Assembly: GCA_035628875.1 (NCBI GenBank)
Contig: DASPIZ010000135.1
Span: forward strand, 50,875-114,874
Length of the DNA stretch: 64,000 nt
DNA from: Ohtaekwangia sp.
GTDB lineage: Bacteria; Bacteroidota; Bacteroidia; Cytophagales; Cyclobacteriaceae
Direction of reading: 5' to 3'
Shown here: one piece after another, positions 1,118 through 53,965 of the stretch
Layout of the letters: each line of letters opens with the position of its first letter
How positions within the stretch are numbered: the stretch's first letter is position 1
Notes under the pieces: model-generated
Told to the model about the DNA's origin: nothing
The model's database searches: none
The model's input: the letters and a program-made list of their open reading frames with translations, nothing else
Translations under genes and position numbers: made by a program

Positions 1118-1458
1118 GTACGAGCGTGTAGAAGAAGCTACGAGCCAATAGCTTTGAGCCGCGTTTGTTTTGATAACTAACAAGTTTCCGATAACACCTT
1201 CGAACAGGTGTAGGGCCAGGTTACTAGATTTTTAACCATCCCCGTTCAGCTATTCGCTGAACATTCCCTCCTTATTCAAGGATGGGAGTTGGGGGCTGCA
1301 TCTCAATCGGTGGCCAGGAACATTCAACAATTTCGATATCAGTTCGTTGTCGAGGACCGACCTCAAACTTCAAACCTCAAACATCAAACGTCAAACAATT
1401 TCACTAACCCATCGTTTTCGAAATTTCAAACTTTCAACCATGAACCTTGAACCATGAA
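1118..1458 (-). repeat. Composite heptamer cassette, copy E (degenerate), between convergent genes
   Basis: 5 in-phase units cctcaaa/cttcaaa/cctcaaa/catcaaa/cgtcaaa at 1361-1395; ccatgaa/ccttgaa units ~1424-1458 abutting the stop at 1459; gctacga-type units 1118-1185; hairpin ccctcctt-attc-aaggatggg at 1266-1286. Confidence 0.8.
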
Positions 1459-2235
1459 CTATTTCCGCTTATTCATCGACTGTAACCTCTCGTTGACAAA
1501 AATCAATTCGGCATTGACCTGTTCGGTTGCGCGTGCCCGGAACATAAGTTCTTCATTGAGACGTTCGAGGTGAAGGGTTCGCTGGGCTATTTTTTGTTCG
1601 ATCGTCTGGTCCATAGTCCTTAATTCTGTTTCTGCTTTCACCTGGGCTGTGACATCACTCAGGAGGAACAATAATTTACGATTGTTGTTTCGCACAGCCT
1701 CAAGCTGAATAATGACTTCTTTTTTCTCATTATTAGTCATTCGCCAACTGCCTAATTTCCGATAGCTGTCGGTCAGGCGATTCGAAACAGACTGACTCAT
1801 AAAGCGATCGCGCTCTGATTCAATAATCAGGTCTTGCAGGTGCATCGTTCTAAATCCAATAGCATCGTAACCGAATATTTTTTGAGCCGACTCGTTGCTA
1901 TCTGAAACCTGAAGCGTTTTTACATCAACCAAAATTAACGGACATGGATTTTTTAAAAACAAGTTGTGATTCTCCTGGGTTTTAGTCATCAACGATTGAT
2001 GAAGATCATGGACGAGGTAAAAAAGAAATCCACCGGTTACCCCGATAAACATTACCCCTTTTAGGATGTGGATGTGCGACATTTCCAGCAACATGTTATC
2101 CGGCCCCATCCACGACAAAATCGAATCCGAAAAAAGGATCCAAAGCATACCTAAAACGACATACTTAACGGTGAGTGACACCGCAGGGCTCACAAGCTCT
2201 TTAGCTTCCGGAGAAACAGCATTTTGCTTAAGCAT
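1459..2235 (-). CDS. Membrane-anchored PAS-domain protein with C-terminal coiled coil and no kinase domain
   Basis: Two N-terminal hydrophobic segments; PAS-like LFLKNPCP...NESAQKIFGY...DVT; ends after a coiled coil with no H-box. Confidence 0.7.
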   Translation of the reverse strand: MLKQNAVSPEAKELVSPAVSLTVKYVVLGMLWILFSDSILSWMGPDNMLLEMSHIHILKGVMFIGVTGGFLFYLVHDLHQSLMTKTQENHNLFLKNPCPLILVDVKTLQVSDSNESAQKIFGYDAIGFRTMHLQDLIIESERDRFMSQSVSNRLTDSYRKLGSWRMTNNEKKEVIIQLEAVRNNNRKLLFLLSDVTAQVKAETELRTMDQTIEQKIAQRTLHLERLNEELMFRARATEQVNAELIFVNERLQSMNKRK

Positions 2236-2421
2236 CCTTATATGGCGATAAAATCAAAAAGAAAAGACTGCAAAGTACGTAGCAGCTGCTGTTCGGAGAC
2301 CTCAACTTTGGATCTAGGTTGTTTCGTGTAAGTTTTTCGTTTAATCTTCCGAAATGATGGTTGGTTAGGCATTTTATCGGGATGAATCCAATGTAGAGAT
2401 TCAAGCAAAAGCCAGGAAAAG

Positions 2422-2493
2422 TGGTCCCACCGGGAATCGAACCCAGATCTAGAGTTTAGGAAACTCCTATTCTATCCGTTGAACTATGAGACC
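2422..2493 (-). tRNA. tRNA-Arg(CCT)
   Basis: Reverse complement is GGTCTCATAGTTCAACGGATAGAATAGGAGTTTCCTAAACTCTAGATCTGGGTTCGATTCCCGGTGGGACCA: 7-bp acceptor stem, anticodon loop TTCCTAA, GTTCGATTC T-loop, CCA not fully encoded. Confidence 0.97.
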
Positions 2494-2536
2494 TTAAAAC
2501 CAGCAGGAAGTTGCTCCCGGATGGAAAAATGTGCCG

Positions 2537-7048: not shown

Positions 7049-7404
7049 GTAAGAAGAAAAACACGCTAAAAGATCTTGATGAGTTTCTGAAACAACAAGC
7101 TGCTTCGCTCGTTACCCCAGAACCCGTGAACATGCCAGTACAAGAACCGGCAACAGTATCACCCGCAAAATCTGAAGGTGAGGAACCAACAGCAGATAAA
7201 ATTATTTCTCAACTCAGCGCTCTCGCTAAACAAAATCCTAATCACTTCCGCACAATCCTATACGACATCATTATCAAATCACTTGAACAACTTCCGCATT
7301 CGCTACCCGAAGACAAAATGCTGATCAATACATCTCTCTACTTAAAAAGTGGCGACCAATGGAAGGATGTGATACGGAAGTATTGGAAGGAATATGGTTC
7401 ATAG
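7045..7404 (+). CDS. Hypothetical protein, putative ParA partner
   Basis: ATGA overlap with parA; basic N-terminus MSKKKN, Pro-rich linker, helical C-terminus. Confidence 0.75.
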   Translation: MSKKKNTLKDLDEFLKQQAASLVTPEPVNMPVQEPATVSPAKSEGEEPTADKIISQLSALAKQNPNHFRTILYDIIIKSLEQLPHSLPEDKMLINTSLYLKSGDQWKDVIRKYWKEYGS

Positions 7405-7530
7405 TTCATGGTCCAAAGTTCAAAGTTGGAGTTCGATAACGAAGCGTTTGCGACATTGTTTTGAGGTTTGACGTTTGAGTTTGATTTGTTTTCGATAACG
7501 ATGAGATTTGGCATTGTTTGAGCTTGCTCA
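7396..7530 (+). repeat. Composite heptamer cassette, copy A (left modules)
   Basis: ggttcat/agttcat/ggtccaa/agttcaa/agttgga, then ttcgataacgaagcgttt and tttgagg/tttgacg units as in copies B and C. The first unit overlaps the last codons and stop of the upstream gene. Confidence 0.85.
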
Positions 7531-7941
7531 TGCTCAGAATTTAAACCTGCGGTCCAAACAAGGTTGAGATGACAAGCCTTACCAATTATAACCGTACAAC
7601 TGCTTGGCTGTCGTCAATACTTACCTTTGCTTCTTGTTATTATCGATATATCCTCGAAAATTCACACAAGACATACTCGAATTTACGAACGTATCAAATA
7701 ATGCTTCGCTGGCTGAATCAATGCTCCGAAGGAGCTAAATATGGATAGCCGCGAGCGAAGCTCGTGGCCAATATTCCGACATTAAGCATGTGCCACAGGT
7801 GCAAGTGGATCAGGAGAAAAACGCTCATGGCACACAACATGAAAATTGTGATCGAAAGAAAGCCAATCTTATTTTATCTCCTGATCTAATAAGTTATCCA
7901 AATCTACTTGGACCTTATATGTAAGAACCGAAGACACTTAA

Positions 7942-8210
7942 GCTCGAATCAACCAACCTCGCAGATCGTAACTCAAAGCGCGTAGCTAACTCAAAATCCA
8001 ATTATTAGGAAAAACGCCTTGCAGCTTAAAGCCTGCAGCCTGACGCTTATCAAAAACACATCAGTTAAGACCAACAAACTCGCGGCTCGCAGCTCAAAGC
8101 TCGCGGCTTTTTGAAAGCCCACCGCTTCGCACGCCATCAAACTTTAATTTCTCTCAACATTTTTACTTTCAACTTAAACCATGAACTTGGAACCTTCGTT
8201 GAACCTTCAA
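7942..8210. repeat. Heptamer cassette modules (right modules twice, plus an inverted ttcaagg-type module)
   Basis: caaactcgcggctcgcagctcaaagctcgcggct; cttgcagcttaaagcctgcagcctgacgctta; aaccatgaacttggaacc just before the 8220 start. Confidence 0.75.
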
Positions 8211-15380: not shown

Positions 15381-16114
15381 TCACCACCATTCTTATCGAC
15401 GATGAACCTTTGGCCAGAAGCATCACGCGCGAGTATCTGGCATCTTACTCCGATATTCAAATCGTACAGGAATGTAACGATGGCTTCGAAGGCGTTAAAG
15501 CCATCACACAGCACAAGCCGGATTTAATTTTTCTCGATATCCAAATGCCGAAAATAAATGGGTTTGAGATGCTGGAACTCCTGGACCCATGTCCCTCCGT
15601 AATATTTACCACCGCATTCGATGAATATGCAATCAAAGCTTTTGAAGCACACGCCATTGATTACCTGCTAAAACCTTATAGCAAAGAGCGGTTTGATAAG
15701 GCTATGCAAAAATGGTTGCAGCAAAAAAACAACAACGCAATAGTCAATGAAAAAACCCTACCGGAAAACATACGCCAACCAGAAGAGCGAAATCGTATTG
15801 TTGTAAAAGAAGCCGGAAACATCAGGATCATTCCGGTTCATGAAGTGTTATACCTTGAAGCATATGATGACTACGTAAAGATACACACATCAAAAGAAAT
15901 GTTCCTGAAAAAGAAAACCATGAGTTTTTACGAGCAATCACTCGACGAACACCAATTCGTTCGCGTACACCGATCGTACATTATTCAGTTATCTCAACTC
16001 ACACGCATCGAACCGTTCGAAAAAGACAGTCATATCGCACGCTTGAAAAACGGAACTAAAATTCCCCTTAGCAAAAGCGGATACACAAAACTTAAAACCG
16101 TTCTCGGAATGTGA
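15377..16114 (+). CDS. LytTR-family response regulator
   Basis: REC domain (IDDEPLA, FLDIQMP) plus LytTR FVRVHRSYII; overlaps the kinase stop (ATGA). Confidence 0.95.
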   Translation: MITTILIDDEPLARSITREYLASYSDIQIVQECNDGFEGVKAITQHKPDLIFLDIQMPKINGFEMLELLDPCPSVIFTTAFDEYAIKAFEAHAIDYLLKPYSKERFDKAMQKWLQQKNNNAIVNEKTLPENIRQPEERNRIVVKEAGNIRIIPVHEVLYLEAYDDYVKIHTSKEMFLKKKTMSFYEQSLDEHQFVRVHRSYIIQLSQLTRIEPFEKDSHIARLKNGTKIPLSKSGYTKLKTVLGM

Positions 16115-16118
16115 GGCA

Positions 16119-16463
16119 GGTTCAGAGTTCAAGGTTCAGAGTTCATGGTTCAAAGTTCATGGTTCAAAGTTCAAAGTTTAAGGTTGGAGTTCGATAACGA
16201 AGCGTTTTGTGAATTGTCTGAAGTTAGAGGTTTGAGGTTGGTCTCCGATAATCATGATGTTTCCTGTCCTTACCATCATCCTGACGCGACTGTGCTCAAG
16301 CACATGTATGCAGAAGGATTCCCTAACTCGAGCGAAAAAATGTTTCGTTAGCAAAATCAAATTAAAAAACTGTTAGTATAGAAATTCACATCAATTACGA
16401 TCAGCAAACTCGAGGCTCATAGCTCACAGCTCGTAGCTATTCCCAAACCCAACAATATTCGAC
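16119..16463 (+). repeat. Composite heptamer cassette, copy B (near complete)
   Basis: 10 in-phase heptamers 16119-16188 (ggttcag agttcaa ggttcag agttcat ggttcaa agttcat ggttcaa agttcaa agtttaa ggttgga), tttgagg module, catcctga...gaaggat core, gctcgta module. Confidence 0.9.
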
Positions 16464-16467
16464 ATCG

Positions 16468-16646
16468 CCTTTGCGTGACTCTGCGGCTTTGCGGCTCCTA
16501 TGTTTGCGGTTAAGCGTATTTATCAAATTGCGATAGTACAATGGTAGTGTTTTTCTCACCGCGAAGTCGCGAAGACGCAGAAGTACGCGAAGTGTTAAAT
16601 AGGATTTTACTTTGCGAAACTTTGCGTCTCAGCGCCTCTGCGGTTA
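16468..16646. repeat. 8-bp-periodic imperfect hairpin repeat (cgcgaag / ctttgcg family)
   Basis: accgcgaagtcgcgaagacgcagaagtacgcgaag (16558-16592) pairs with ctttgcgaaactttgcgtctcagcgcctctgcggtt (16610-16646); an extra right arm sits at 16468-16513. Confidence 0.75.
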
Positions 16647-16671
16647 AGTTGTTACCAAATTAGTGTCGAAA

Positions 16672-16800
16672 ACGCATCAATTACGATCAACAAACTCGAG
16701 GCTCGTAGCTCACAACTCGTAGCTTTTCGAAAAAACATATAAATAGTCGAAAACAACTTACCGCTTGCAGCCTATAGCCTGAAGCTTACCAGAAACCGCA
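16672..16800 (+). repeat. Heptamer cassette, right modules only (copy I)
   Basis: catcaattacgatcaacaaactcgaggctcgtagctcacaactcgtagct is nearly identical to 16388-16438; gcttgcagcctatagcctgaagctt module follows. Confidence 0.85.
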
Positions 16801-16822
16801 TCAAACAACGAAACCAAAAACC

Positions 16823-19204
16823 TCATTCATTTCTCAACGTATCCACCGGATTTGCTTTTGCCGCTTTAAGCGTTGTACTGCTTGTTGTAAGCATGCCCAT
16901 TGCAAAGACGCCCACAGCACATACAATGATCGGTATAATACTGATGACAATATGGTGCGCATAGATTTCATCCAGCAATGCGTTAATCAGATAAAAACCA
17001 CCCACACTACCAAATACAACTGCTATCATCAGGATAATCACAAATTCTCTATTCAATAATGCGACGACATTCACCACCGTAGCACCGAGAGCTTTACGTA
17101 TGCCAATCTCCTTAGTACGTCTTGCAATGTTGAGCGAAGCCAGCGAAAAAATTCCCGAAGCAGAAAGCAAACCACCAAGCACTGTAAGAAATAGAAAAAT
17201 CTGTTTGAGGTTGGCGTTTGTCCGCTTCGTCTCTTCCAACACAATATCCTCCTGAAATTTGCTTTCGTAGGATTTAGTAGGAAATGTTTCCTTCCATATC
17301 TTCCCGATGTATTTATCGATCTCGCCACGATCAGCGGCATTTACTTTTACCAACATAAGCTTATAAGCATCTGGTGTAGCCGGATAAAAGACAAAAGGCT
17401 CTGGTTCTTTTGAGCGGAAAAGGTTATCAATATGATCTTCAATAACGCCCACGATGTGACGCTTTACTTCATGTACCACTACAATCTTATCCAACGGATC
17501 CACCATGTTTACCTTTTTCAAAAAAGCTTTATTCACGACTACGGCTTCTGCTAAATCTGATGAATTTTCAGGATTGAATGAATTTCCTTCGATGAATTCA
17601 AAACCCATCGTTTCAAAATAATTTTTTCCAACACCCAACAACCTGGCTTCATATTCTGAAGTATCTACCTTCACAGGAAACTGGTAATTGCTATAACCTA
17701 CCTGATGATCACTTACGCCAATGTTCAGAATTTTGGCATTACCTGAAATCGCATTACGGATCGCCTCATATTCGTTTTCACTTTGAATATTCACGGTAAT
17801 CACCATCTCCTTATCATAACCAAACTTAATTTGCTCCTGGTAATGTGTGTTTTGAATAAATATAACACCAGCGATCAGCACAATGACCGAAAGGGCAAAC
17901 TGAATAGCCACCAACGATCGGGTAAGCCCATTGGTGCCTTTAATCTTTACGCTTCCTTTTAACAATGACACGGGTTTAAATCTGCTGTTAAAAATTGCCG
18001 GATATAGGCCAGCCAATAAGGAAGCAATGAATACAAGAATGATCAAAGTAATAAAAAGATTTACGCCATCGAGGTCACGCAATCCATAAGGAAGGTTCCA
18101 CATGGTGGTGAAGGCCGGCACGATAAACTGGGCCATGATCAACCCGACCACCAGCGACAGTGAAATTGTAATTACGGTTTCGAGAAGAAACTGTGATACG
18201 ATCTGCCCTTGCGCTGCACCAATTGCTTTGCGCACACCTACTTCTTTCAGTCGCTTAGCCGTAAGCGCAATGGATGTATTCGTAAGATTGAAACAGGCAA
18301 TCAATAAGATCATGCCCGCCATAGAAATAAAAATAAGTAACGGAACAAAACTTATGCGCAGGTTCGCATAGCTCGACCGTATGTCATCCTGTGTAAATGA
18401 CGATTTAAATGGCTCAAGCTTATAAGCTGTGACCATAGCATCTTTCTTAACTTCATTGCGCAGGGGTATATACTTATCAAATTGTTTACTTATATGGGCT
18501 GGATCACTTCCGGCAACCAGTTTCACAAAGGTGGAAGGATCACGCCAATCGCCCCAATTATTAATCTCCAATTTATTGATATCCATAAACACTTCAACAC
18601 GCATCAGCACATTGACCGAGAATGAATTGTTAACCGGTGTCTTGGCGAGTACACCACCAACGATTGCCTGGATTTCAATTTCATTCGGATAATTGAGGAC
18701 CAAGACTTTTCCTACAGCATCCTCGTCACCGAAATACTTCTTAGCATATTCCTCGCTGATAAAAACACTGTGTTTATCTTTAAACGCCAGGTGACTCCCG
18801 CTCTTCAGCGGATAATCGAACATATCAAAAAATGTACTGTCGACATAGGCGATATTTTCAGAAAACGAATTATCACCATAACGAATGTAACCCCCACCAT
18901 AGATAAAACGGGTAAACTGTGCGATACCGCTGATATCCTCAGCAGCGATGGGACCGAATACAATAGGTGCCGTAATAGTTTGTGTTGTAGGTCCGTCCTT
19001 CTCCTTGAAATGTGTATGTACTTTATACACATCAGCTACTTTCTCATCTTTATGAAAGCTGTCGAACTCAATATTATATGCTACTAAGATGTATGCCGTA
19101 ATACAACACGCCAGGGAAATGCCCAGTCCGAATGTATTGATGATGACATAACTTTTGTTTCGAAGCAGGTTTCGCCAGGCTACCTGGAGGTAATTTTTGA
19201 TCAT
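16823..19204 (-). CDS. ABC transporter permease, MacB/FtsX type (duplicated)
   Basis: MIKNYLQVAWRNL start at 19204; two FtsX domains (KEVGVRKAIGA; KEIGIRKALGA). Confidence 0.93.
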   Translation of the reverse strand: MIKNYLQVAWRNLLRNKSYVIINTFGLGISLACCITAYILVAYNIEFDSFHKDEKVADVYKVHTHFKEKDGPTTQTITAPIVFGPIAAEDISGIAQFTRFIYGGGYIRYGDNSFSENIAYVDSTFFDMFDYPLKSGSHLAFKDKHSVFISEEYAKKYFGDEDAVGKVLVLNYPNEIEIQAIVGGVLAKTPVNNSFSVNVLMRVEVFMDINKLEINNWGDWRDPSTFVKLVAGSDPAHISKQFDKYIPLRNEVKKDAMVTAYKLEPFKSSFTQDDIRSSYANLRISFVPLLIFISMAGMILLIACFNLTNTSIALTAKRLKEVGVRKAIGAAQGQIVSQFLLETVITISLSLVVGLIMAQFIVPAFTTMWNLPYGLRDLDGVNLFITLIILVFIASLLAGLYPAIFNSRFKPVSLLKGSVKIKGTNGLTRSLVAIQFALSVIVLIAGVIFIQNTHYQEQIKFGYDKEMVITVNIQSENEYEAIRNAISGNAKILNIGVSDHQVGYSNYQFPVKVDTSEYEARLLGVGKNYFETMGFEFIEGNSFNPENSSDLAEAVVVNKAFLKKVNMVDPLDKIVVVHEVKRHIVGVIEDHIDNLFRSKEPEPFVFYPATPDAYKLMLVKVNAADRGEIDKYIGKIWKETFPTKSYESKFQEDIVLEETKRTNANLKQIFLFLTVLGGLLSASGIFSLASLNIARRTKEIGIRKALGATVVNVVALLNREFVIILMIAVVFGSVGGFYLINALLDEIYAHHIVISIIPIIVCAVGVFAMGMLTTSSTTLKAAKANPVDTLRNE

Positions 19205-19328
19205 ATGAGAGAACGTTAGCGGTGGAGTTAACGCGATGACAATAAATATACCACAAATCAAACCCTGAAAATCAATTCAAATACGAAGATCACAGGTATC
19301 ACAATGTTCATTTATGAACGGGGTGAAC

Positions 19329-19690
19329 GTTCATGGTTCAAAGTTCAAGGTTGGACATTCGATAACGAAGCGTTTTGTGAAATTGTTTGAGGTTTGAGGT
19401 TTGAGGTTGGTTTCCGATAATGATGAGATTCGGAATTTGTTTGAGCTTCCTTTTTCGTTACCGTCATCCTGATGCGACTGTGCCTCGGCACAGTCATGCA
19501 GAAGGATCCCCCGATCGTGAGAAAAATGTTTCGTTGGCAAAATCAAACTGAAAAACTTGTTAGTATTGAAAACCACATCGATTATGCCCAACAAACTCGA
19601 GGCTCGAGCTCGCAACTCGCAGCTTTTCAAAAAACTCATCAATAATCGAAAATAGCTTGTTGCCTGTAGCTGCACCAACACACACCTACT
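19329..19690 (+). repeat. Composite heptamer cassette, copy C (complete)
   Basis: Same module order as B; shares the 24-bp identity ttcgataacgaagcgttttgtgaa with B; perfect hairpin gactgtgc-ctcg-gcacagtc inside gtcatcctga...gaaggatc. Confidence 0.9.
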
Positions 19691-19705
19691 ATCGAAATCA
19701 ACCAC

Positions 19706-23263: not shown

Positions 23264-23284
23264 CTTGTGTGGAGATTCTTATGT

Positions 23285-23560
23285 GTGTGGCTCTGAGCTG
23301 CAAGCTTTAAGCTTCAAGGATCAAGGGTATTTTCGAATATTTGGAAGTTTGGCGAAAGCTGCGAGCGTTGAGCTACGAGCCGCGAGTTTATTGGCCATAA
23401 CCGATGTGGCTTTCTGTACTAACAAGCATCAGGATGACGATAACGAGAGGGAAACATCATCGTTATCGAAACCAACATCAAACATCAAACATCAAACACT
23501 TTCGCAAAACGTTTTCGTTACCAACTCCAACCTTGAACTTTAAACCTTGAACCTTGAACC
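23285..23560 (-). repeat. Composite heptamer cassette, copy D (internal 81-bp deletion)
   Basis: The reverse complement has all modules in order, but gtcatcctgatg is joined directly to cttgttagta. Confidence 0.9.
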
Positions 23561-23564
23561 AGTC

Positions 23565-24648
23565 TCACCCCTGTGCTCCCAGTAAAAACGCTTTGATAAA
23601 ATCATCGAGTTCACCATCCAATACGTTTTGCGCGTCGTGGCGTTCTACCCCGGTTCGCGCATCTTTCACAAGTTTGTAAGGATGCAAGACATAGTTGCGT
23701 ATCTGCGAACCAAAATCTATTTTCATTTTACCGGCTTCAATTTTATCGCGCGCAGCGTTTCGTTTTTGTATCTCCAGTTGATATAGCTTCGATTTCAACA
23801 TCTGCATGGCGCGTTCTCGGTTCGCATGTTGCGAGCGCTCTACCTGGCAGACAATAACGATCCCGGTTGGCTTATGCGTAAGCTGTACTTTGGTTTCAAC
23901 CTTGTTTACATTCTGACCTCCTGCCCCACCGGATCGGGATGTTTGGATTTCGACATCCGCTGGATTTACCTCAATCTCGATTGAATCATCGACTTTGGGA
24001 TAAACAAAAATCGAAGCAAACGATGTGTGTCTGCGGTCATTGGAATCGAAAGGTGAAATGCGAACCAACCGATGAACACCAATCTCACTTTTTAGTTTAC
24101 CATAGGCAAATGGACCTTCGATTTCAAGCGTTGCGCTTTTAATACCCGCCACCTCGCCTGCCTGATAATCAACCTGCGATACCTTGTAACCATTTTTTTC
24201 ACCCCACATGATGTACATGCGATTGAGCATGTCGGCCCAGTCCTGGCTTTCAGTTCCCCCGGCGCCAGGGTTAATCTCTACAACGGCACTAAGCTGATCC
24301 TCTTCTTTGCTCAACATTTTTTTGAATTCAAGCTCTTCAACCGAATGGTTTACGCGCTTGTATTCACGTTCCAACTCCTCCTCCCCTACATCACCGACTT
24401 CATGAAACTCATTGAGTACCTCCAGGTCATCAACCCGCTTTCGGACTTCATCGAAAGCATCGGTCCATATTTTTTTCAGACGAATACTTTTGAGCATGAC
24501 TTCTGCGTGTTTAGGGTTATTCCAGAAATCTGCTTGTTGTGTAATAAGTTCTTCGTCGTTTATTTCAAGGCACTTACGATCGTAGTCAAAGATACCCCCT
24601 CAAGGCACTAACGCGAGCCTTCAAATCTTTCAATTGATCTGTTGTCAT
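23565..24648 (-). CDS. prfB: Peptide chain release factor 2 with programmed +1 frameshift
   Basis: ATG at 24648 gives 20 codons [20 protein letters not shown], then CTT-TGA-C (24591-24585) with the internal SD AGGGGG 3 nt upstream; the +1 frame continues DYDRKC... and contains SPF and GGQ motifs. Confidence 0.97.
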
Positions 24649-27468: not shown

Positions 27469-27503
27469 TCCCAATCCCTGATGCCCAATGCCTAATTCCC
27501 AAT
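27469..27503 (-). repeat. Heptamer array (5 units, attggga/attaggc family)
   Basis: + strand tcccaat ccctgat gcccaat gcctaat tcccaat, 2 bp from the stop at 27506. Confidence 0.8.
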
Positions 27504-27505
27504 CG

Positions 27506-28369
27506 TTATAAAGACGAAGAGTCACCGATAAAAGTTACACATCGGCGGATCACGGCATCATCCCTTAATATGCGGGTGTGACCGAGTTTTGTGGTTCGGA
27601 TCAGGTTGGCGTTTGGATAAACAGCCAGCAGCGCTTCGGCATTTTTGATATCAACTTCTTTATCGTTCTCATCGTGAACCAATAAAAGATCGATTGGTGC
27701 GGGTAAGTGTTTTACAAAATAGAGCGATGAATATTCTTCGAAAGGTTTACCTTCCGTTTTCAACACATAGGATTTAAAAAATTCACCCGTTTTATACGAT
27801 CCCTGAACAGCACTCAAATAGGTACGAATCACTTCGTCGGCTATTGTCGGAGAAGCAATGTTGACAAGCTTCTTTATAGGTAATCCTTGCATGACCGAAA
27901 AAAGTGCCGCTACGCCACCAAAAGAATGTGCTATAACTGCATGAGGGTGCCCCTGGATGCTGAAAATTTTTTCAAGTGCTTCTTCGAATTCCACAATCGA
28001 TGTTTTCCTTCCTTCTGAATTCCCGTGTGCGGGGCCGTCAAATCCTACTACACGAAACCCGGCTGCCATAAGGGGTTTAATGAATCTCCTGAACTGTGTA
28101 GTGCGTCCAGCCCAACCGTGGATAAACAAAACATAAGGTCCTGTTTCACCCCATGCGTAACACTGTACATTCTTTCCGGCGGTAATAATGTTAAATTTCT
28201 TAGCGAAGGTCTCCGCTTTTCTTTCTTTTTCAGGTGTCGGATAACGAAGCGGCGTGTTAAATATCTTTATAAAATAACGATGTGCCAGAAAAGGGGCGAT
28301 TCGCTCAAGTACCGGAAAAACGGAACGAACTACTTTCAGCATGAAGGGTGTTTTGTCTTTTTGCCCCAT
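27506..28369 (-). CDS. Alpha/beta hydrolase
   Basis: HGWAG, FDGPAHG, AHSFGG, HDENDKEV, LGHTRIL. Confidence 0.92.
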   Translation of the reverse strand: MGQKDKTPFMLKVVRSVFPVLERIAPFLAHRYFIKIFNTPLRYPTPEKERKAETFAKKFNIITAGKNVQCYAWGETGPYVLFIHGWAGRTTQFRRFIKPLMAAGFRVVGFDGPAHGNSEGRKTSIVEFEEALEKIFSIQGHPHAVIAHSFGGVAALFSVMQGLPIKKLVNIASPTIADEVIRTYLSAVQGSYKTGEFFKSYVLKTEGKPFEEYSSLYFVKHLPAPIDLLLVHDENDKEVDIKNAEALLAVYPNANLIRTTKLGHTRILRDDAVIRRCVTFIGDSSSL

Positions 28370-28413
28370 TTTGTTAGTTACACCATTTTTGAGGGAAATT
28401 CAAGACCGACCAT

Positions 28414-29181
28414 TTATTTTTGAATCGGAAACTCGTACGACCGCGTGGTATATTGAAATGACTTGAGATCATACGTGCGCTCGGCAAAGAAAACACGATT
28501 ATGGTTATCAATCATTACAAGTGTTGAACAACGTGAACCGTAATTCGGTGTTTTTATAAACATGGATGAAAGTGCACGTTCCCTGTCAACCGGCAAACCG
28601 GTTTGAGGCAACAACGCATCTTCTGCAATTTCATCATTATATAATACGGAGAAAATTTTTTCAGTATCGATCTTTGGCGCATAGACCAGGGGTTTGATCC
28701 TCAGTTTACCGTTCACCACCTTTGGCCATGGTGTATCGAGAAGGTGATTACTCAAACCGTAAAATCCACGATCGAGTTTCTTTACATCAGCTCCATAGTT
28801 GGAATAGTAATACATTTCATCTGGTGTCCCCGCCAATAGATTGAACCCATTGTAAGTATTTCCTTGCCCTGCAATGGCGTTTAAATACTCCGGCGCGGAT
28901 ACCGGTTCAATCAGATAATCAATCACCAGCTTTCCGCGTGAAGGAGCCTGCGGATTAATATTCGAAGGATCGCGGTAATTGGTCAGCATACTGATCCTTC
29001 CGGTCTTCGTTATGCCAAGCCATGTACCTCCCGCTTCCATATCCCGCCCTGCCAGAACATCGGGATGGTCTCGCCAGAATTGTGCCGGTGCAGTAGCCCT
29101 ATTGTAAAATTCATCCCGGTTAGCAGCGATAATCAGCTTATAATCCGGATGCTCATTTAGTGAAAAGAAGATAAGGCACAT
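28414..29181 (-). CDS. NRDE/TANGO2 family protein
   Basis: MCLIF, NRDEFY, GGTWLG, LTNYR, YGSRCST. Confidence 0.95.
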   Translation of the reverse strand: MCLIFFSLNEHPDYKLIIAANRDEFYNRATAPAQFWRDHPDVLAGRDMEAGGTWLGITKTGRISMLTNYRDPSNINPQAPSRGKLVIDYLIEPVSAPEYLNAIAGQGNTYNGFNLLAGTPDEMYYYSNYGADVKKLDRGFYGLSNHLLDTPWPKVVNGKLRIKPLVYAPKIDTEKIFSVLYNDEIAEDALLPQTGLPVDRERALSSMFIKTPNYGSRCSTLVMIDNHNRVFFAERTYDLKSFQYTTRSYEFPIQK

Positions 29182-29182
29182 G

Positions 29183-29273
29183 ATTAGGCATTAGGCATTA
29201 GGTATTAGGTATTAGGTATTGGGTATTGGGTATTGGGTATTGGGTATTGGGTATTGGGTATTGGGTATTGGGG
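29183..29273. repeat. Heptamer VNTR, 13 units
   Basis: attaggc x2, attaggt x3, attgggt x7, attgggg x1, in phase. Confidence 0.97.
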
Positions 29274-30604: not shown

Positions 30605-30683
30605 GCGAGATACGAGGTACAAGGCACGGGGTAGGAAGTACAAGGTAAGGATGAAGCGAAGTACGAGGAACGAGGTGCAAAGG
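30605..30683 (+). repeat. Heptamer array (tacgagg/tacaagg family)
   Basis: tacgagg tacaagg cacgggg taggaag tacaagg ... tacgagg aacgagg tgcaaag directly after the NUDIX stop. Confidence 0.8.
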
Positions 30684-30772
30684 CGAACATGGTTAAGGAA
30701 ATACGGAAAAAAAATTAGTATGGGTGTTTATTGCGGGTTTGATTTATCAACACAAGGGACGGCTTGAACGAA

Positions 30773-33107: not shown

Positions 33108-33156
33108 GTGTTGGGGTTCTATAAAAGATAAAAGTAATAAATTATCGAAGAATAAA

Positions 33157-33650
33157 GCCACTAAGGCACCAGGACACTAAGAAGAAATACCTCTTGTAGT
33201 TTGCATTCCTTCGTGTCTTCGTGCCTCGTGGCTTCATATCGCACGCTCAATCAAAAATTGACGCCACTAAGACACCAGGACACTAAGAATACCTACCACC
33301 TTTTATACTTTGAATTCCTTCGTGTCTTCGTGCCTTCGTGGCTTCATATAGCACACTTCATTAACATTAACGCCACTAAGGCACCAGGACACTAAGAAGA
33401 AATACCTCTTGTAGTTTGTATTCGTTCGTGTCTTCGTGCCTCCGTGGCTTCATATAGCACGCTCAATAAAACTTGACGCCACTAAGGCACCAGGGCACTA
33501 AGAATACCTACCACCTTTTATAGTTTGAATTCCTTCGTGTCTTCGTGCCTTCGTGTCTTCATATAGCACATTTCATTAAAATTAACGCCACTAAGGCACC
33601 AGGACATTAAGAAGAAATACCATTTTTATAGTTTGTATTCCTTGATGTAT
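33157..33650. repeat. Tandem array of alternating 106/109-bp palindromic units
   Basis: Units start at 33157, 33263, 33372, 33478 and 33587 with gccactaag(g/a)caccagg(a/g)ca(c/t)taagaa; units 1=3 and 2=4 by loop sequence; the fifth unit is degenerate. Confidence 0.95.
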
Positions 33651-38449: not shown

Positions 38450-38995
38450 TTAACGCTTATGCGTATCAACGCGTTTGGCTGTTTTATGTGACTTTTTGCT
38501 TGTCTTTTTTGCAGATGATTTCTTTGCGGACTTTTTGGCCTTAGCTTTATCTTTCTTCTTTGCTTCTTCTTTTGCTTCTGCAGCCCAAAGCTTTATGTTT
38601 TCGCGAATCACCTTCCAGTAATCTTTACCATAATCAACAAGTATCTCCGATCTGGCGGGAATATCTTTTTTCGCTTCGATAAATGCCTTGGTTCCCTCAA
38701 CGATGTAATCACAGTTGTTTACCAAGCCTTTAATCTTCACTAAACCACGGGCATCGTTCGCATATCGTGCAAATGCTTTCTTGTCAGGAAATCCGTCGAT
38801 CACATGGTTTCTATTGATATAAAAGATATATCCGTTCTTTCCGTCATCATCTGCCACATCTTTCCAGGCTGAACGCTTTCCTTTGTACTCAACGATCAAT
38901 GTTCCCTTCGGAATAAATTTTTTTGTAAATAACCCTTTTCCAGCGTTGGGAATGGTAGACTTCTTAACGTAAAGTTGTTTTTCTAATAGTGCCAT
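38450..38995 (-). CDS. SET-domain protein with Lys/Ala/Ser-rich tail
   Basis: STIPNAGKGLF, EYKG, ARYAND, EILVDYG...YW; tail AKKKDKAKAKKSAKKSSAKKTSKK. Confidence 0.9.
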   Translation of the reverse strand: MALLEKQLYVKKSTIPNAGKGLFTKKFIPKGTLIVEYKGKRSAWKDVADDDGKNGYIFYINRNHVIDGFPDKKAFARYANDARGLVKIKGLVNNCDYIVEGTKAFIEAKKDIPARSEILVDYGKDYWKVIRENIKLWAAEAKEEAKKKDKAKAKKSAKKSSAKKTSKKSHKTAKRVDTHKR

Positions 38996-39076: not shown

Positions 39077-39140
39077 AGTTAGGGATTGAGTATTAGGTAT
39101 TAGGCATTAGGTATTAGGGGTTGGGTATTAGTGTCTTGGG
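39077..39140. repeat. Heptamer array (tattagg family)
   Basis: agttagg gattgag tattagg tattagg cattagg tattagg ggttggg tattagt. Confidence 0.85.
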
Positions 39141-39262
39141 TGTTACGATCAGTGATGATTGTTGATATGGACGTAAATGAAGACTTTTATACAATGGCGC
39201 TATATTTATAAAGCTTTCAAATAAATGGTTATGAAGTTTTAAGATGAAGTTTAAAGCATACG

Positions 39263-40355: not shown

Positions 40356-41870
40356 TTAAAACAAATTATTACCGGGTTGCATCATTCCGGCTTCGATGCT
40401 TACACCCAATCCATCCGCGACACGCAAGCCTAACCCTGGATCGCAGCGAAAAAAGTGACAAAGCTGGCGATTAACAATAAGCTCTTTTTTTGGACCAGAA
40501 ATCGCTTTCATGGAACCGACAATATTCTTTACAAGGTTTATTCTTTCTTCTTCAGTTAACACCCTTTTATACAACCAGCCCGGCTGTGTATAATGATCAT
40601 CTTCGCCAGGGGCATTGCGATCATACCAATCCGCTACAATGGCATCCAACGAAAGTGCAGGTTCTTTGTATGCAGGATCAGGATAGATGGCATCGAAACT
40701 ATTGGGGAAATAATTTGGCGCAGATCCTCCGTTGCCATCAACGCGCATGGCACCGTCACGTTGATAGTTATGCACCGCATATGGGCACTTATTAACCGGG
40801 ATCTGCTCATAGTTTGCACCCAAACGATAACGATGTGCATCCGGATAAGATAAAATTCTTCCCTGCAACATCTTGTCAGGTGAATAACCGACGCCATCAA
40901 TAACATGGGCAGGAGCAAAAGCAGCTTGTTCAACTTCCGCAAAATAATTTGACGGGACTTCGTTTAACTCCATCACACCAACATCAATCAACGGAAAGTC
41001 TTTCTGTGGCCAAATCTTAGTAAGATCAAACGGATTAAAGTTAAACTCCTGAGCCTGCTGTAACGTCATGACCTGGACCTTCAGTGACCACTTCGGAAAA
41101 TCCCTCCGATCTATGGCTTCCACAAGATCGCGTTGCGCCTGATCGAGATCTTTTGACTTCATCAAATCGGCTTCATCTGCGGTAAAATTTTGAATTCCCT
41201 GTTGTGATTTAAAATGAAACTTTACCCACACAATGTCATTGTCCTTATTCACTAACGAAAATGTGTGACTTCCAAAACCATGCATATGCCGGTAACTGTA
41301 CGGCGTACCCCGGTCACTCATTACAATCATCACCTGGTGCAGGCTTTCCGGATTTAACGACCAGAAATCCCACATCATCGTTGGACTTTTAAGATTCGTA
41401 CGGGGATCACGTTTTTGCGTGTGAATAAAGTCATCAAACTTCTTGGGGTCTTTGATAAAAAACACAGGTGTGTTATTGCCTACCAGATCCCAGTTACCCT
41501 CTTCTGTATAAAATTTAACCGCGAAGCCACGCGGATCGCGCTCAGAATCTGCGCTTCCTTTTTCACCACCTACTGTTGAGAACCTTGCCAACACACGGCA
41601 TTCATTTCCGACATTACCGAAGAGTTTAGCACGTGTATACTTAGAAATATCATGGGTTACCTTAAATGTACCATACGCTCCGGTTCCTTTTGCATGGACA
41701 ACACGTTCAGGAATTCTTTCGCGGTTGAAGTGCGCCATCTTTTCATGCAAAATGAAATCCTGAAGTAAAACCGGACCACGCGGTCCTGCAGTCATACTGT
41801 TTTCATGTTCTACATAAGGCTTTCCACTTGCAGTGGTGAGTTTGTGTTTTTGTTCTTTTCCGTTTTCCAT
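40356..41870 (-). CDS. katA: Monofunctional heme catalase
   Basis: FNRERIPERVVHAKG, VGNNTPVFF, RILSYPDAHRYR; small-subunit size (504 aa). Confidence 0.95.
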   Translation of the reverse strand: MENGKEQKHKLTTASGKPYVEHENSMTAGPRGPVLLQDFILHEKMAHFNRERIPERVVHAKGTGAYGTFKVTHDISKYTRAKLFGNVGNECRVLARFSTVGGEKGSADSERDPRGFAVKFYTEEGNWDLVGNNTPVFFIKDPKKFDDFIHTQKRDPRTNLKSPTMMWDFWSLNPESLHQVMIVMSDRGTPYSYRHMHGFGSHTFSLVNKDNDIVWVKFHFKSQQGIQNFTADEADLMKSKDLDQAQRDLVEAIDRRDFPKWSLKVQVMTLQQAQEFNFNPFDLTKIWPQKDFPLIDVGVMELNEVPSNYFAEVEQAAFAPAHVIDGVGYSPDKMLQGRILSYPDAHRYRLGANYEQIPVNKCPYAVHNYQRDGAMRVDGNGGSAPNYFPNSFDAIYPDPAYKEPALSLDAIVADWYDRNAPGEDDHYTQPGWLYKRVLTEEERINLVKNIVGSMKAISGPKKELIVNRQLCHFFRCDPGLGLRVADGLGVSIEAGMMQPGNNLF

Positions 41871-41961: not shown

Positions 41962-41966
41962 TACTA

Positions 41967-42170
41967 AGTTCAAGGTTCATGATTCAAGGTTAAAAGTTTG
42001 TGTTCTGTAACGAGTGGCAGACGAACTAATTTGAGGTTTGAGGTTTGAGGTTTGAAATGCCCTCATAGCTTGATACTGATTGGATGCAAAGCTCGCTTTA
42101 GCATTCAAAACCTAATTATAATTAGTTAACCGGAAACCAACCTCCAACATCAAACGTCAAACCTCAAACA
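41967..42170. repeat. Heptamer cassette copy F with an inverted tttgagg pair
   Basis: ttcaagg units from 41967; tttgagg x3 + tttgaaa (42030-42057) opposite cctccaa catcaaa cgtcaaa cctcaaa (42141-42168). Confidence 0.8.
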
Positions 42171-42185
42171 GTTCTGCACAACCCG

Positions 42186-43106
42186 TCACCTCCACGTCAC
42201 CCGAATGTACTTTTCGTTCTTTTTAAAATGTGCGGGAATAGCTTTTAGTATGGCTTGCCTGAGTTTATCAAGAAGCATTTCCTTGACAAATCCGTTGTGT
42301 ACCACCAGGCTTACTTCGCGTACGGGTTCCGGTGCGTTGAAATGTTTGACGTGTTTGTTCTTTGAATCAACCGCGAGTTCGGGAATGAGTGTATAACCGT
42401 AGTTGTTATCTACCATTGCTTTCAATGTTTCAAACGAACCGCTCTGGTAATTCAGCTGATTATGGGTTTTCTTTTGTTTCGCAGAGCAAAGGTTTTCAAC
42501 CTGTCCACGGAAGCAGTGTCCTTCTTCCAATAAAAGCAGGTTGTCGTACGAAAGCGATTTAACGTTGATTTTTTCCTGTTGAAAATACTTGAGATGTTCG
42601 GCAGTGTATAACAGAATAGGTTCGTAAAAAATCGGGATCTCCCGGATTTCGCGGTCGTCAACCGGTGTTACCAATATGGCAACATCCAAACGATTTGTTT
42701 TTAACATTCTGATAATCTCTTCGGTTTGCAATTCCATTACCGTAAAAGATGTACCGGGATGTTTCTCCAGGAACTTATTTAAAAACTTAGGCAATAGGTA
42801 AGGCGCTAACGTAGGAATAACACCGAGGCGAAATTCACCTTCGATGGAATCTTTTTCATTTCGAATGAACTCCTTTAGATTCTTAATCTCTTGTAAAATC
42901 TGCCGCGCCCTCGAAATAATAATTTCCCCTGACTTTGTTGGCTTTAACGGCTGACCTTTGTCAAAGATTTTAACGCCGAGCTCATCTTCAAGCTTTTTAA
43001 CCATCATACTGAGCGTGGGTTGTGTCACGTTACAGAAATTTGCGGCTTTGGCATGGTTCCGATGAATATCCAGCGCAATTATATATTCCAGTTGTTGCAA
43101 GTTCAT
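42186..43106 (-). CDS. oxyR: Hydrogen peroxide sensor, LysR family
   Basis: LysR HTH (CNVTQPTLS); LEEGHCFRGQVENLC with the two redox cysteines; adjacent to catalase and ahpCD. Confidence 0.93.
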   Translation of the reverse strand: MNLQQLEYIIALDIHRNHAKAANFCNVTQPTLSMMVKKLEDELGVKIFDKGQPLKPTKSGEIIISRARQILQEIKNLKEFIRNEKDSIEGEFRLGVIPTLAPYLLPKFLNKFLEKHPGTSFTVMELQTEEIIRMLKTNRLDVAILVTPVDDREIREIPIFYEPILLYTAEHLKYFQQEKINVKSLSYDNLLLLEEGHCFRGQVENLCSAKQKKTHNQLNYQSGSFETLKAMVDNNYGYTLIPELAVDSKNKHVKHFNAPEPVREVSLVVHNGFVKEMLLDKLRQAILKAIPAHFKKNEKYIRVTWR

Positions 43107-43792: not shown

Positions 43793-43890
43793 AGGTTCAA
43801 GCGGTTCAAGGTTCATGGTTTAAGGTTCAAAGTTAGGCGTTCGAATAACACCAGAATTTCGACATTGTTTGAAATTTGATGTTTGGTTAC
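43793..43890 (+). repeat. Heptamer cassette copy G (left modules)
   Basis: ggttcaa ggttcat ggtttaa ggttcaa agttagg starting 1 bp after the ahpC stop, then tttgaaa tttgatg. Confidence 0.8.
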
Positions 43891-43922
43891 GACGACATGG
43901 AACTATATTAAAATTAAAAATT

Positions 43923-44519
43923 ATGGAACAAGTAATCTTAACATATTCAGAAAGCACGCAGGAGTTTCTCGAGTTTTTACAATTGGAGAAAGATTATCGT
44001 ACGGAGGCGCTCGACTTGCTGGAAGAAGGAAAGTCGCGATACCTGGCCGATTTAAAAATCAATTTTAAAAATTCTTTTGAGAGTGAGTTTCTTTCTAAGA
44101 AGGAAATCGTGCTTCTTGGTGTAGCGCTGGCTGTCAACGCGAGCAATGGTATACTTCGTGATTTCTTTAAAAGAAAAGCAGAAGCAGAAGGTGTTACAGC
44201 GGAAGAGGTCGCGGAAGCCGTGGCATGTTCGTCCTTATTGAGCGCAAATAATGTCTTTTATCGTTTTCGCCATTTTCTTAACAAAGAAAAATACGACGAG
44301 ATCCCTGCACGTATTAAAATGAATATCATGGCTCGCCCGGTAACGGGAAAAGAGTTCTTTGAACTTATTAGTCTTGCAGTGAGTGCCGTAAATGGTTGCG
44401 AAATGTGTGTAAAGTCACATGAAGCATCCCTGCTCGAACTCGGCAGCAAGGAAGAACGGATTTTTGAAGCCGTACGCCTTGCTTCAGTTATCACGAGCTT
44501 AAGCAAAGTGGTGTATTAA
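43923..44519 (+). CDS. ahpD: AhpD-like carboxymuconolactone decarboxylase family reductase
   Basis: AVSAVNGCEMCVKSHE CxxC motif; directly after ahpC. ATG 43923 preferred. Confidence 0.88.
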   Translation: MEQVILTYSESTQEFLEFLQLEKDYRTEALDLLEEGKSRYLADLKINFKNSFESEFLSKKEIVLLGVALAVNASNGILRDFFKRKAEAEGVTAEEVAEAVACSSLLSANNVFYRFRHFLNKEKYDEIPARIKMNIMARPVTGKEFFELISLAVSAVNGCEMCVKSHEASLLELGSKEERIFEAVRLASVITSLSKVVY

Positions 44520-49832: not shown

Positions 49833-49899
49833 GGACTTTAACATTTCATTAACGCGCTATAGTTGGTAAGCGTGTGTATATTTTCCACCATTATAAAAA

Positions 49900-53391: not shown

Positions 53392-53863
53392 TACCAACGC
53401 AAACACGCCGATTATGAAATTCTGTTTACCCCTGCTCCTGACTTTTATGTTCGTCTCCTGTAGCGACGCTACTAAAAACCAGGATAGCCCATCCGTTGAT
53501 ATCGAAGGAACCTGGCAGTTGGTTTCTTCCGTTCAGATACAAAACGATTCTACGCATACCGATGATCTCTCCGGTCAAAAGATGATTAAGATTTTGAACA
53601 AGACCCACTTCTCTTTCCTGCGTCACGACTTAGACTCTGGTAAATCGGCATCACCCGTTTTTGTTTCAGGCGGCGGTCGCTATTTCTTCGAAGACCAAAA
53701 ATATACTGAGCACCTGGAGTATTGTAACTTCAGAGAATGGGAAGGCCATGAATTCGATTTCGAAGTAAAATTTATTGGCGATACACTGATCCAGCAAGGT
53801 GTTGAAGAGATTAAAGAACTTGGGGTGAATCGTACGATTATTGAAAAGTATGTTAGGATCTAG
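53381..53863 (+). CDS. Lipocalin-like lipoprotein
   Basis: Lipobox FVSC; IEGTWQLVS; overlaps the receptor stop by 11 bp. Confidence 0.8.
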   Translation: MKTNTNANTPIMKFCLPLLLTFMFVSCSDATKNQDSPSVDIEGTWQLVSSVQIQNDSTHTDDLSGQKMIKILNKTHFSFLRHDLDSGKSASPVFVSGGGRYFFEDQKYTEHLEYCNFREWEGHEFDFEVKFIGDTLIQQGVEEIKELGVNRTIIEKYVRI

Positions 53864-53867
53864 GAAG

Positions 53868-53965
53868 GTACGGGGACGAGGTAAAAGGTACGAAATACGG
53901 GACGAATACAAAGTACAAGAGACGAAGCACGAGGCATGAAGTGTGAGTGACGATGTATAAGGTGC
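53868..53965 (+). repeat. Heptamer array (tacgagg family, degenerate)
   Basis: taaaagg tacgaaa ... tacaaag tacaaga gacgaag cacgagg catgaag directly after the stop. Confidence 0.7.

Follow-up and report, generated by a model that had tools for sequence, protein, structure and literature searches.

Tandem arrays of 7-nt units (heptamer arrays) lie in many gaps between genes of the bacterium Ohtaekwangia sp. (Bacteroidota), and we analyzed them in a 64,000-nt stretch of assembly GCA_035628875.1 (contig DASPIZ010000135.1, here C135, positions 50875-114874; the window) and in the whole assembly of 5.59 Mb and 164 contigs. A single rule governs these arrays: their G/T-rich strand runs 5′ to 3′ away from the nearest open reading frame (ORF), at stop and start codons alike. 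We lean towards the view that these arrays form the arms of intergenic cassettes, modular and of hairpin type, with a built-in polarity, which would have been copied into about 330 gene gaps. Polarity, composite structure, insertions, overwriting of gene ends and co-varying arms around genes of the PF05635 family were all observed.

A prediction made earlier from the letters of the window alone (the original prediction) had proposed that several heptamer families share a loose consensus, with the G-rich strand directly after stop codons and the C/A-rich strand before starts, and had called for a genome-wide scan of strand and distance. We detected arrays with Tandem Repeats Finder (TRF) in the window and the whole genome, merged the rows into arrays, and took ORFs from a custom gene caller (4560 genes, 84% of the genome coding). 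The observation was confirmed in the window and became much stronger at the scale of the genome. Within 10 bp of a stop codon, 151 arrays had the G-rich strand in the sense of the gene and 8 the C-rich strand, and within 100 bp these counts were 306 and 23 (p = 3e-64). Near start codons the sense strand was C-rich, with 99 arrays against 8 within 100 bp (p = 4e-21). The rule was unchanged when only the 3328 high-confidence genes were retained (G:C in sense of 254:16 at stops and 9:88 at starts). Placement followed the same polarity: the 5′ end of the G strand lay within 10 bp of an ORF in 162 arrays and the 3′ end in 11, when a null model that places arrays uniformly in gaps predicts 26 ± 4.

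In gaps of all four types (++, --, +- and -+), left-side arrays were G-rich on the + strand and right-side arrays were C-rich; therefore, the G strand points outward from stops and starts alike. The order of arrays inside gaps was GC in 30 cases, GGC in 21, GCC in 16 and GGCC in 5, with almost no case of C followed by G. Since orientation flips within single gaps, replication direction is not the cause, and a replication-direction bias was ruled out on this basis. The label "transcript-oriented", which the elements had been given in the original prediction, does not describe them correctly, as polarity is set by the nearest ORF border in all four gap types, and the interpretation given there is thus supported in part only.

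The TTCAARG strand is free of stop codons and its complement carries TGA, so that ORF ends near arrays are partly array-defined. This raises the concern that the stop content of arrays shifts called ORF ends and thereby mimics the rule, an explanation to which we give next to no credence. The bias would go in the wrong direction, as a stop-free strand would be read through. Moreover, polarity by family was 83:1 for TTTGAGG, 74:2 for TTCAAAG, 62:2 for TTCAAGG, 37:1 for TTTGATG and 28:1 for GCGAGCT, and hence the same for the stop-free G strand (TTCAARG) and for the G strand with TGA (TTTGAKG, that is, TTTGAGG and TTTGATG), which argues against an ORF-calling artefact. This per-family test rules out that the rule is a trivial result of which strands contain stop codons. 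Calling artefacts are also at odds with the persistence of the rule in high-confidence genes and with its consistency with ortholog ends in relatives and with annotation-based counts in other genomes (PMC4692102).

Period 7 is the dominant tandem-repeat period of this genome, with 822 TRF rows, where periods 6 and 8 have 132 and 228. Merging gave 878 heptamer arrays (28 kb), 723 of which are intergenic despite the high coding density. The commonest units are TTTGAGG (137 arrays), TTCAAAG (101), TTCAAGG (71), GCGAGCT (56) and TTTGATG (45). G runs in these top families do not exceed GG, and GGG is present only in the minor TATTGGG family; as the main units have no quadruplex capacity, the strand rule is independent of G-quadruplex (G4) structure. 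The loose consensus T-N-Y-R-A-G-S that had been proposed across families is real. Among 620 oriented arrays, the G-rich strand matched it exactly in 50% and with at most one mismatch in 88%, as compared with 3% and 27% for letter-shuffled units and 0.5% and 23% for the C-rich strand. The TATTAGG/TATTGGG family showed both the poorest fit to the consensus and the poorest obedience to the strand rule.

Two of the unit types are joined in a composite that we call element A. An array of (TTCAARG)n was followed by (TTTGAKG)n at most 150 nt away on the same strand in 149 cases, with the reverse order in 8. The spacer between the arms has a modal length of 34 nt and the consensus TTGGTTTTCGATAACGA-N-GGGCTTGTGCCAATTG, and roughly 135-250 copies of element A are present in the genome. 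The median distance of its 5′ end is 6-7 nt for the 84 copies next to a stop and 58-81 nt for the 34 copies next to a start, while 255-420 nt separate its 3′ side from the next ORF; solo copies behave alike. Element A also takes part in a larger structure, as the window gaps 1095-1458, 7405-8180, 16115-16822, 19205-19705 and 23264-23564 align over a cassette of ~330 bp. It combines AAGCTNC/GCTACGA arrays with a conserved stretch whose end reads GAGTTTGTTG..CATAATCGATGTGG, a hairpin module in the middle and element A in inverted form. BLAST over the genome gave 248 copies of module MA, 104 of MC and 62 of MM, and these modules are chained solely with the two G strands converging. A heptamer array lies within 400 bp of 35 of the 328 contig ends, where ~21 would be expected, which indicates that some assembly breaks fall inside cassettes and that the copy numbers are lower bounds.

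TRF found about 25 arrays of period 7 (or 14/21) in the window. The arrays and cassettes described here are the following:

1096-1165, + strand: TACGAGC/AGCT-type units, ~27 nt past the stop at 1094; left arm of a two-sided cassette that fills the convergent gap 1095-1458.
1350-1459, - strand: element A, flush with the stop at 1459, consisting of a (TTCATGG/TTCAAGG) arm, a ~34-nt spacer and a (TTTGAKG) arm.
7397-7500, + strand: element A; the TAG stop of the gene (7402-7404) lies inside the array unit TTCATAG.
8065-8110, - strand: TGCGAGC-type array, C-rich in the sense of the gene, located 72 nt ahead of the start at 8181; its G strand leads away from this start.
16115-16200, + strand: ~10 TTCARRG units that begin 6 nt past the stop at 16114; the inner motif GTTGGAGTTCGATAACGA comes next.
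16400-16822, - strand: AAGCTNC/GCTACGA-type arrays together with modules of the cassette, past the stop at 16823.
19320-19705, - strand: full modular cassette of ~385 bp, running outward from the stop at 19706 in the order AGCT-type arrays (MC), middle hairpin module (MM) and inverted element A, the G strand of the latter lying on + at 19335-19420, away from the start at 19204.
23264-23564, no single strand: two-sided cassette filling a convergent gap, with AAGCTTC/GAGCTAC arrays on + after the stop at 23263 and an element A on - that begins 6 nt past the prfB stop at 23565.
27470-27505, - strand: ATTGGGA/ATTAGGC array, 2-5 nt past the stop at 27506.
29183-29272, + strand: 12 TATTAGG/TATTGGG units that occupy all of a 98-bp tandem gap and reach right up to the start at 29181.
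30605-30690, + strand: degenerate TACGAGG/TACAAGG array, directly past the stop at 30604.
39079-39145, + strand: TATTAGG-type array in a divergent gap; its G strand leads away from the start at 38995.
41965-42060, + strand: element A, ~95 nt upstream of the start of a minus-strand gene at 41870 and pointing away from it.
42139-42185, - strand: 5′-truncated element after the stop at 42186, with half of the spacer (GGGTTGTGCAGAACTG), the TTTGAKG arm and TTGGTTTCCGGTTAAC.
43793-43885, + strand: element A, directly past the ahpC stop, between ahpC and an ahpD-like gene.
53864-53965, + strand: degenerate, purine-rich TACGRGG/TACAAAG array, directly past the stop at 53863.

All 13 stop-side coordinates of the original prediction were found to be correct, each with a G-rich, C-poor array running outward in the sense of the gene. 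The array begins 0-6 nt past the stops at 1459, 7404, 16114, 23565, 27506, 30604, 43792 and 53863, and 17-35 nt past those at 1094, 16823, 19706, 23263 and 42186. On the start side, the + array at 29181 directly adjoins the ATG, and the others lie further off, 72-130 nt upstream: C-rich arrays are present ~83-130 nt upstream of the starts 19204, 38995 and 41870, and the start that had been given as 8220 is placed at 8181 by our gene call, with its array 72 nt upstream. The remark that single arrays filling tandem gaps (29183 and 43793) satisfy only one half of the rule held as well.

Comparison with relatives shows that the elements are insertions, as the corresponding sites are short and empty. 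The spacer between ahpC and the ahpD-like gene (gene identities by Pfam) measures 3-28 nt in 13 relatives and 130 nt here, where it holds element A straight after the TAA stop and a 26-nt duplication that restores the ATGGAAC start. The gap between pyrG and yidC is 17-33 nt long in 15 same-genus relatives, with neither array nor Avd-like gene; here it spans 554 nt and contains an array, an Avd-like gene and a complementary array. A third case is prfB, which has 5 more codons in 19 same-genus relatives, most of them with a hairpin-plus-T-run terminator 10-30 nt past the stop. Here prfB ends early with a TGA (window 23565-23585), element A begins 6 nt later, and the canonical terminator is absent. 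Two details of these loci were also observed. At window positions 43886-43929, the ancestral start context GACATGGAAC is followed by the 26-nt insertion or duplication (TATATTAAAATTAAAAATT plus ATGGAAC), of which the duplicated ATGGAAC is the in-frame start of the ahpD-like gene, and the first ATGGAAC now meets a stop. As for prfB, the ORF as called spans just 310 aa, and the usual frameshifted N-terminal part of RF2 may therefore lie in another frame.

Arrays often overwrite the last codons of a gene and supply its stop codon. TAG accounted for 47% of stops with an outward G array at most 10 nt away, compared to 21% genome-wide (chi2 = 70), and the TRF-defined array began before the end of the stop codon in 44%, typically with the unit TTCATAG or with TAG followed by TTCA. 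The TGA stop of pyrG likewise falls within the first array unit. The typical onset genome-wide is 0-8 nt past the stop, 5′-truncated copies such as 42139-42185 also abut stops, and arrays vary by 7-nt slippage.

Arrays that accumulate exactly at the limit of constraint, even overwriting terminal codons, could in principle have grown where they stand. Such an in-place mutational footprint could stem from polar slippage, from templated addition on 3′ ends after breaks, or from slippage at R-loops formed by nascent RNA free of ribosomes, on the non-template strand that these displace, with the border ratcheting up to constrained DNA. The geometry is what 3′-end extension from the two flanks of a gap would give, with the G strand running 5′ to 3′ inward from both ORFs, and this explanation can also draw on the 5′-truncated elements that abut stops and on the fast turnover of unit sequences between species. 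We nevertheless regard growth in place as clearly improbable. More than 130 copies with a common 34-nt non-repetitive spacer and a fixed arm order are impossible by in situ growth, and entire elements appear at once relative to empty sites. No telomerase-like reverse transcriptase (RT) or RT of the diversity-generating retroelement (DGR) type is present in the genome, which has only group II intron RTs distant from arrays, and the C-to-T bias of R-loops would not explain why composition is reversed upstream of starts. Templated addition at gene ends, one of the mechanisms suggested beforehand, is thus disfavoured by the insertion of preformed, spacer-bearing composites relative to empty sites and by RTs that are of the group II intron type and far from arrays.

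The Avd-like gene between pyrG and yidC belongs to PF05635/TIGR02436, the "23S rRNA intervening sequence protein" family, an Avd-like pentameric four-helix bundle. The genome holds five such genes, and the closest solved structures to their products are 2GSC (XCC0516 of Xanthomonas campestris) and 2RLD. Inward-pointing arrays on both sides were found for just 2 of the 4560 called genes, and both are PF05635 genes. No PF05635 gene enclosed by arrays lies in the window; three are found elsewhere in the genome:

C18:3048-3604: cassette inserted between pyrG and yidC, with a PF05635 gene (C18:3149-3559) between (TTTGAGG)n and (CCTCAAA)n.
C8:30141-30756: cassette with a PF05635 gene (C8:30278-30682) between (TATTGGG)n and its complement.
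C121:27760-28300: region with a third PF05635 gene (C121:27787-28179) between AAGCTNC (AGCT-type) arrays.

The units of these gene-bearing cassettes (TTTGAGG, TATTRGG and AAGCTNC) are main families among the free arrays too. Minimum free energy (MFE) and centroid folds pair both arrays around the PF05635 ORF, with a z-score of about -1.7. We then compared 80 homologous PF05635 loci from named genomes and found period-7 arrays at 64 of them, mostly directly flanking the gene. Upstream arrays had more G than C in 37 of 46 cases, and downstream arrays more C than G in 36 of 45. In 28 of the 37 loci with two arrays (25 distinct units), upstream and downstream units were reverse complements of each other with at most one mismatch. 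The mean distance of arm pairs was 1.05, versus 2.51 ± 0.14 when the pairings were shuffled. The pyrG-yidC context recurs at a single one of the 80 loci, from a Chryseolinea sp. metagenome-assembled genome (MAG) whose PyrG is 82% identical, which indicates that the cassette is mobile. Across 151 Bacteroidota genomes, PF05635 copies tracked matches to (GTT/TTG N4)x5 with a rho of 0.64 (presence 101/119 vs 6/32), a correlation that ignores kinship and is inflated by the arrays flanking the genes themselves; it supports association, not dependence. In the literature searched, no paper linking PF05635/TIGR02436 proteins to heptamer repeats was found. The match of the gene to the DGR Avd model reached 21.8 bits, far short of the cut-off of 80 bits.

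Shared unit families and a short inner motif (TTGGTTTTGAT / TTGGTTTTCGAT) suggest that the non-coding elements may descend from Avd-like cassettes. A more specific proposal, which we offer tentatively and hold to be doubtful, is that heptamer arrays are the stems and solo arms of one mobile class of cassettes resembling intervening sequences (IVS), with an autonomous form that carries a PF05635 gene and with each paralogue recognising or maintaining its own heptamer family. If true, this would explain the fixed inside and outside of the cassettes, and hence the strand rule at gene ends, as well as the co-variation of arms across species and the richness of array-rich lineages in the PF05635 family. 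The host of 2GSC (XCC0516), X. campestris, is among the species with GGGAATC heptamers under the same rule.

Under the cassette reading that we favour, the outer edge of a cassette would be the 5′ end of its G/T-rich strand, with conserved non-repetitive motifs inside and host ORFs always outside, so that both halves of the rule, G-rich after stops and C/A-rich before starts, would follow without transcription. The observed forms are element A, the ~330-bp cassette (AGCT-type arrays plus inverted element A) and arrays enclosing a PF05635 ORF; the non-coding elements would be derivatives of the gene-bearing cassettes in the way that miniature inverted-repeat transposable elements (MITEs) are of transposons. 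Spread may have occurred by recombination or by an unknown mobility function, with no recognisable transposase, and flush anchoring may have arisen from insertion into very short ancestral spacers followed by loss of the unconstrained flank. In RNA leaving a gene, the G/U-rich strand would fold through G.U pairs, and complementary arm pairs would form long stems as in rRNA intervening sequences, whereas transcripts entering a gene would carry just the unstructured C/A-rich version. The most likely molecular effect would be a structured or processed 3′ end.

Several observations weigh against this reading. Marks of mobility, such as a transposase or a target-site duplication, were not found; in particular, no target-site duplication was seen at the ahpC-ahpD insertion, no arrays lie near the group II intron-type RTs, and no heptamer array or cassette module lies within 800 bp of any of the four Y1_Tnp genes in the genome. 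Left and right arrays of ordinary gaps were complementary at 0-1 mismatch in 14%, compared to 22% of random pairs, and therefore most free arrays have no stem partner. Solo copies of element A are 5′-anchored even in gaps ~380 nt long, so that insertion into tiny spacers is not the whole cause and a polar process or selection is still needed. The fold of element A beat dinucleotide shuffles in only one of four copies, the other three being no better, and RNAalifold on its spacer gave -1.7 kcal/mol with no compensatory pairs or covariation. Finally, the descent of the non-coding elements from Avd-like cassettes is read from unit families and the inner motif, not from a tree.

Gap-wide stems that would loop out an intergenic region were dropped for ordinary gaps, given that complementarity was not above that of random pairs. 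In the window, complementary TATTGGG-type arrays that point outward enclose two minus-strand genes, at 27506-28369 and 28414-29181, an arrangement that fits the general rule. As ordinary gap arrays are not preferentially complementary, the arrays enclosing the genes at 27470-29272 are probably a by-product and not a looping device.

An RNA-level role of the arrays is possible. On the G strand of element A, the arms can pair at 6 of 7 positions using G.U, with energies of -19 to -28 kcal/mol, and the complement reaches about -9. These A/U/G.U-rich stems, mismatched once in every 7 nt, differ from the GC-rich stem and U-tract of an intrinsic terminator, and they are followed by TTGGTTTCGATAAC rather than a T-run. 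Conserved RNA structure of the element A spacer was rejected, as there was no covariation and three of the four folds were no better than shuffles. The suggestion of the original prediction that the arrays serve 3′-end protection or processing thus fared unevenly: folding of the G strand via G.U pairs and the replacement of a canonical terminator at prfB are in its favour, while energies that do not exceed those of shuffles and a spacer without covariation are not.

A role of this kind could by itself account for the rule if the arrays were selected transcript-level elements, such as 3′-UTR hairpins, RNase III-type sites or tracks for an RNA-binding protein (candidate binders being S1, a CsrA-like protein or a cold-shock-domain protein whose monomers cover ~7 nt each), with orientation kept by selection, an idea already present in the original prediction. 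We consider this unlikely. Stop sides do carry about three times as many arrays as start sides (about 298 vs 100 at most 100 bp away), arrays begin 0-8 nt past the stop, the G strand folds and the C strand does not, the prfB element occupies the site of the relatives' intrinsic terminator, and the TNYRAGS consensus shared across families could be a protein-binding motif. In a crude scan, moreover, terminator-like sites within 100 nt were about half as frequent after array-bearing stops as after others (12% vs 21.5%). However, by 260 nt these frequencies were similar (26% vs 31%), the hairpin has no U-tract behind it, and fold z-scores were not significant and came without covariation. A quarter of boundary arrays lie upstream of starts, in antisense and with the same 92% polarity, and the ~100 start-adjacent arrays, being antisense to their genes, make a pure 3′-UTR signal insufficient. 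One element is located within the spacer of the ahpC-ahpD operon. The same sites are empty in congeners, which argues against a conserved function bound to the locus.

Mobility genes offer another comparison, as the arrays might be elements of the repetitive extragenic palindrome (REP) or bacterial interspersed mosaic element (BIME) kind, moved by a REP-associated tyrosine transposase (RAYT, a Y1 transposase), or MITEs of a DNA transposon. The elements are indeed extragenic, hairpin-capable and high-copy, lie mostly past stops and are under-represented between divergent genes, and the genome does hold Y1_Tnp genes. Yet none of the four has an array or module at most 800 bp away, and they have different small palindromes instead; there is no target-site duplication at ahpC-ahpD; and orientation reverses inside gaps, unlike that of IS200/IS605-type elements, which is set by replication. 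We therefore judge such an origin very improbable. A RAYT link to the arrays was rejected, as the Y1_Tnp genes have no arrays or modules nearby, and MITEs do not fit either: inverted array ends are present, but there is no duplication at ahpC-ahpD and no transposase with matching ends. A link to DGRs or other retroelements was likewise rejected, given that the RTs are of the group II intron type, on other contigs and unlinked to arrays. The assignment of the RVT_1 matches to group II introns is based on a YADD motif and a maturase-like C-terminal region, not on a Pfam domain scan.

Other features were observed alongside. The genome has 4-5 RT genes (C79:2830-4134, C138:36485-37855, and on C7, C5 and C158), some of them fragmented and several near contig ends. 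Three Y1_Tnp (IS200/RAYT-like) genes, at C14:30096-30629, C160:823-1269 and C139:23423-23974, are flanked by small palindromes of their own, such as AAGTCTTCAGACTTGA and GAGCTAAAAGCTC; these have no relation to the heptamer cassettes and may constitute a REP-like system of their own. At 33153-33643 of the window, a divergent promoter region holds a higher-order tandem array of 109/215 bp (4.6 and 2.3 copies) with internal 8-nt CTTCGTGN repeats, a repeat class other than the heptamers. The Rfam search of the window at gathering score returned nothing besides one tRNA, which is also the sole ARAGORN match:

2421-2493, - strand: tRNA-Arg (CCT).

Among known systems, the intervening sequences of 23S rRNA carry a PF05635 ORF in the loop of a long stem that is removed by RNase III. 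The three gene-bearing cassettes outside the window resemble them, in that a PF05635/TIGR02436 ORF lies between two complementary arms and the unit is inserted relative to relatives. They differ in being located between protein genes (pyrG-yidC and others) and in having stems of tandem heptamers. With REP/BIME elements, REP doublets forming hairpins (REPINs) and MITEs, the arrays share short length, high copy number, hairpin capacity, an extragenic location concentrated past stops and a modular mosaic organization. Unlike REP/REPIN-RAYT systems and MITEs, they show no RAYT or transposase association and no target-site duplication, their heptamer arms are prone to slippage, and their orientation is set by the nearest ORF.

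Short tandemly repeated repetitive (STRR) heptamers of heterocystous cyanobacteria were reportedly described by Mazel et al. in 1990. To our knowledge, gene-end polarity and composite cassettes are not described in the STRR literature. Tandem 7-nt units, hundreds of intergenic copies, several families per genome and the absence of a known function are common to STRR heptamers and the arrays of this genome, whereas phylum and unit sequences differ. A cyanobacterial STRR identity was rejected, as all 80 closest loci of one resident gene come from Bacteroidota and allies, and by these loci the host is probably a member of Cytophagales near Chryseolinea. STRR heptamers serve as fingerprinting targets (e.g. 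PMC5088731).

Closer in geometry are the TAACTGA direct repeats found between genes in Beggiatoaceae, cyanobacteria and some Bacteroidetes (MacGregor 2015, PMC4679880), which lie "forward" 1-43 nt upstream of starts and reversed directly past a stop in Flexibacter litoralis. Their complement reads GTTATCA outward, as the arrays do here, and in both cases close relatives have shorter, repeat-free spacers. However, that study treats one unit family, read as the site of a translational regulator (PMC4679880), and contains no general polarity rule, composite element or associated gene.

The closest precedent is the class of G-rich heptamers described by Rehm et al. 2015 (PMC4692102), GGGAATC in Xanthomonas and GGGGA(C/T)T in Nostoc PCC 7120. 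These are dispersed, mostly intergenic and rare between divergent genes, occupy the sense strand up to 50 bp from stops and the antisense strand in the 50 bp before starts, and in some cases overlap the stop codon; their function was left unresolved (PMC4692102). The tandem 7-nt units of this genome are likewise dispersed and intergenic and follow an identical positional strand rule. In contrast, the main units here (TTCAARG, TTTGAKG and GCTACGA) have no G3-G4 tracts of the quadruplex-forming kind that prefers four units, and the quadruplex explanation is inapplicable to them. The host belongs to Bacteroidota, the arrays are arms of composites with conserved non-repeat spacers, and the PF05635 association goes unmentioned in PMC4692102. 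The strand rule itself is therefore already published for other units; what is new here is a non-G4, non-cyanobacterial variant with composites and a PF05635 association. Tandem heptamers are among the most abundant unexplained repeats of several bacterial phyla, and this genome shows that their published strand rule is independent of G-quadruplex potential and of transcription direction; it would hold because the arrays are the outer arms of inserted cassettes. These elements also reshape genes, by overwriting C-terminal codons, supplying stops, replacing terminators and splitting operon spacers, which matters for annotation and for the reading of 3′-UTRs in Bacteroidota. The tight, co-varying association with a small Avd-like family provides a concrete protein with which this old puzzle can be tested.

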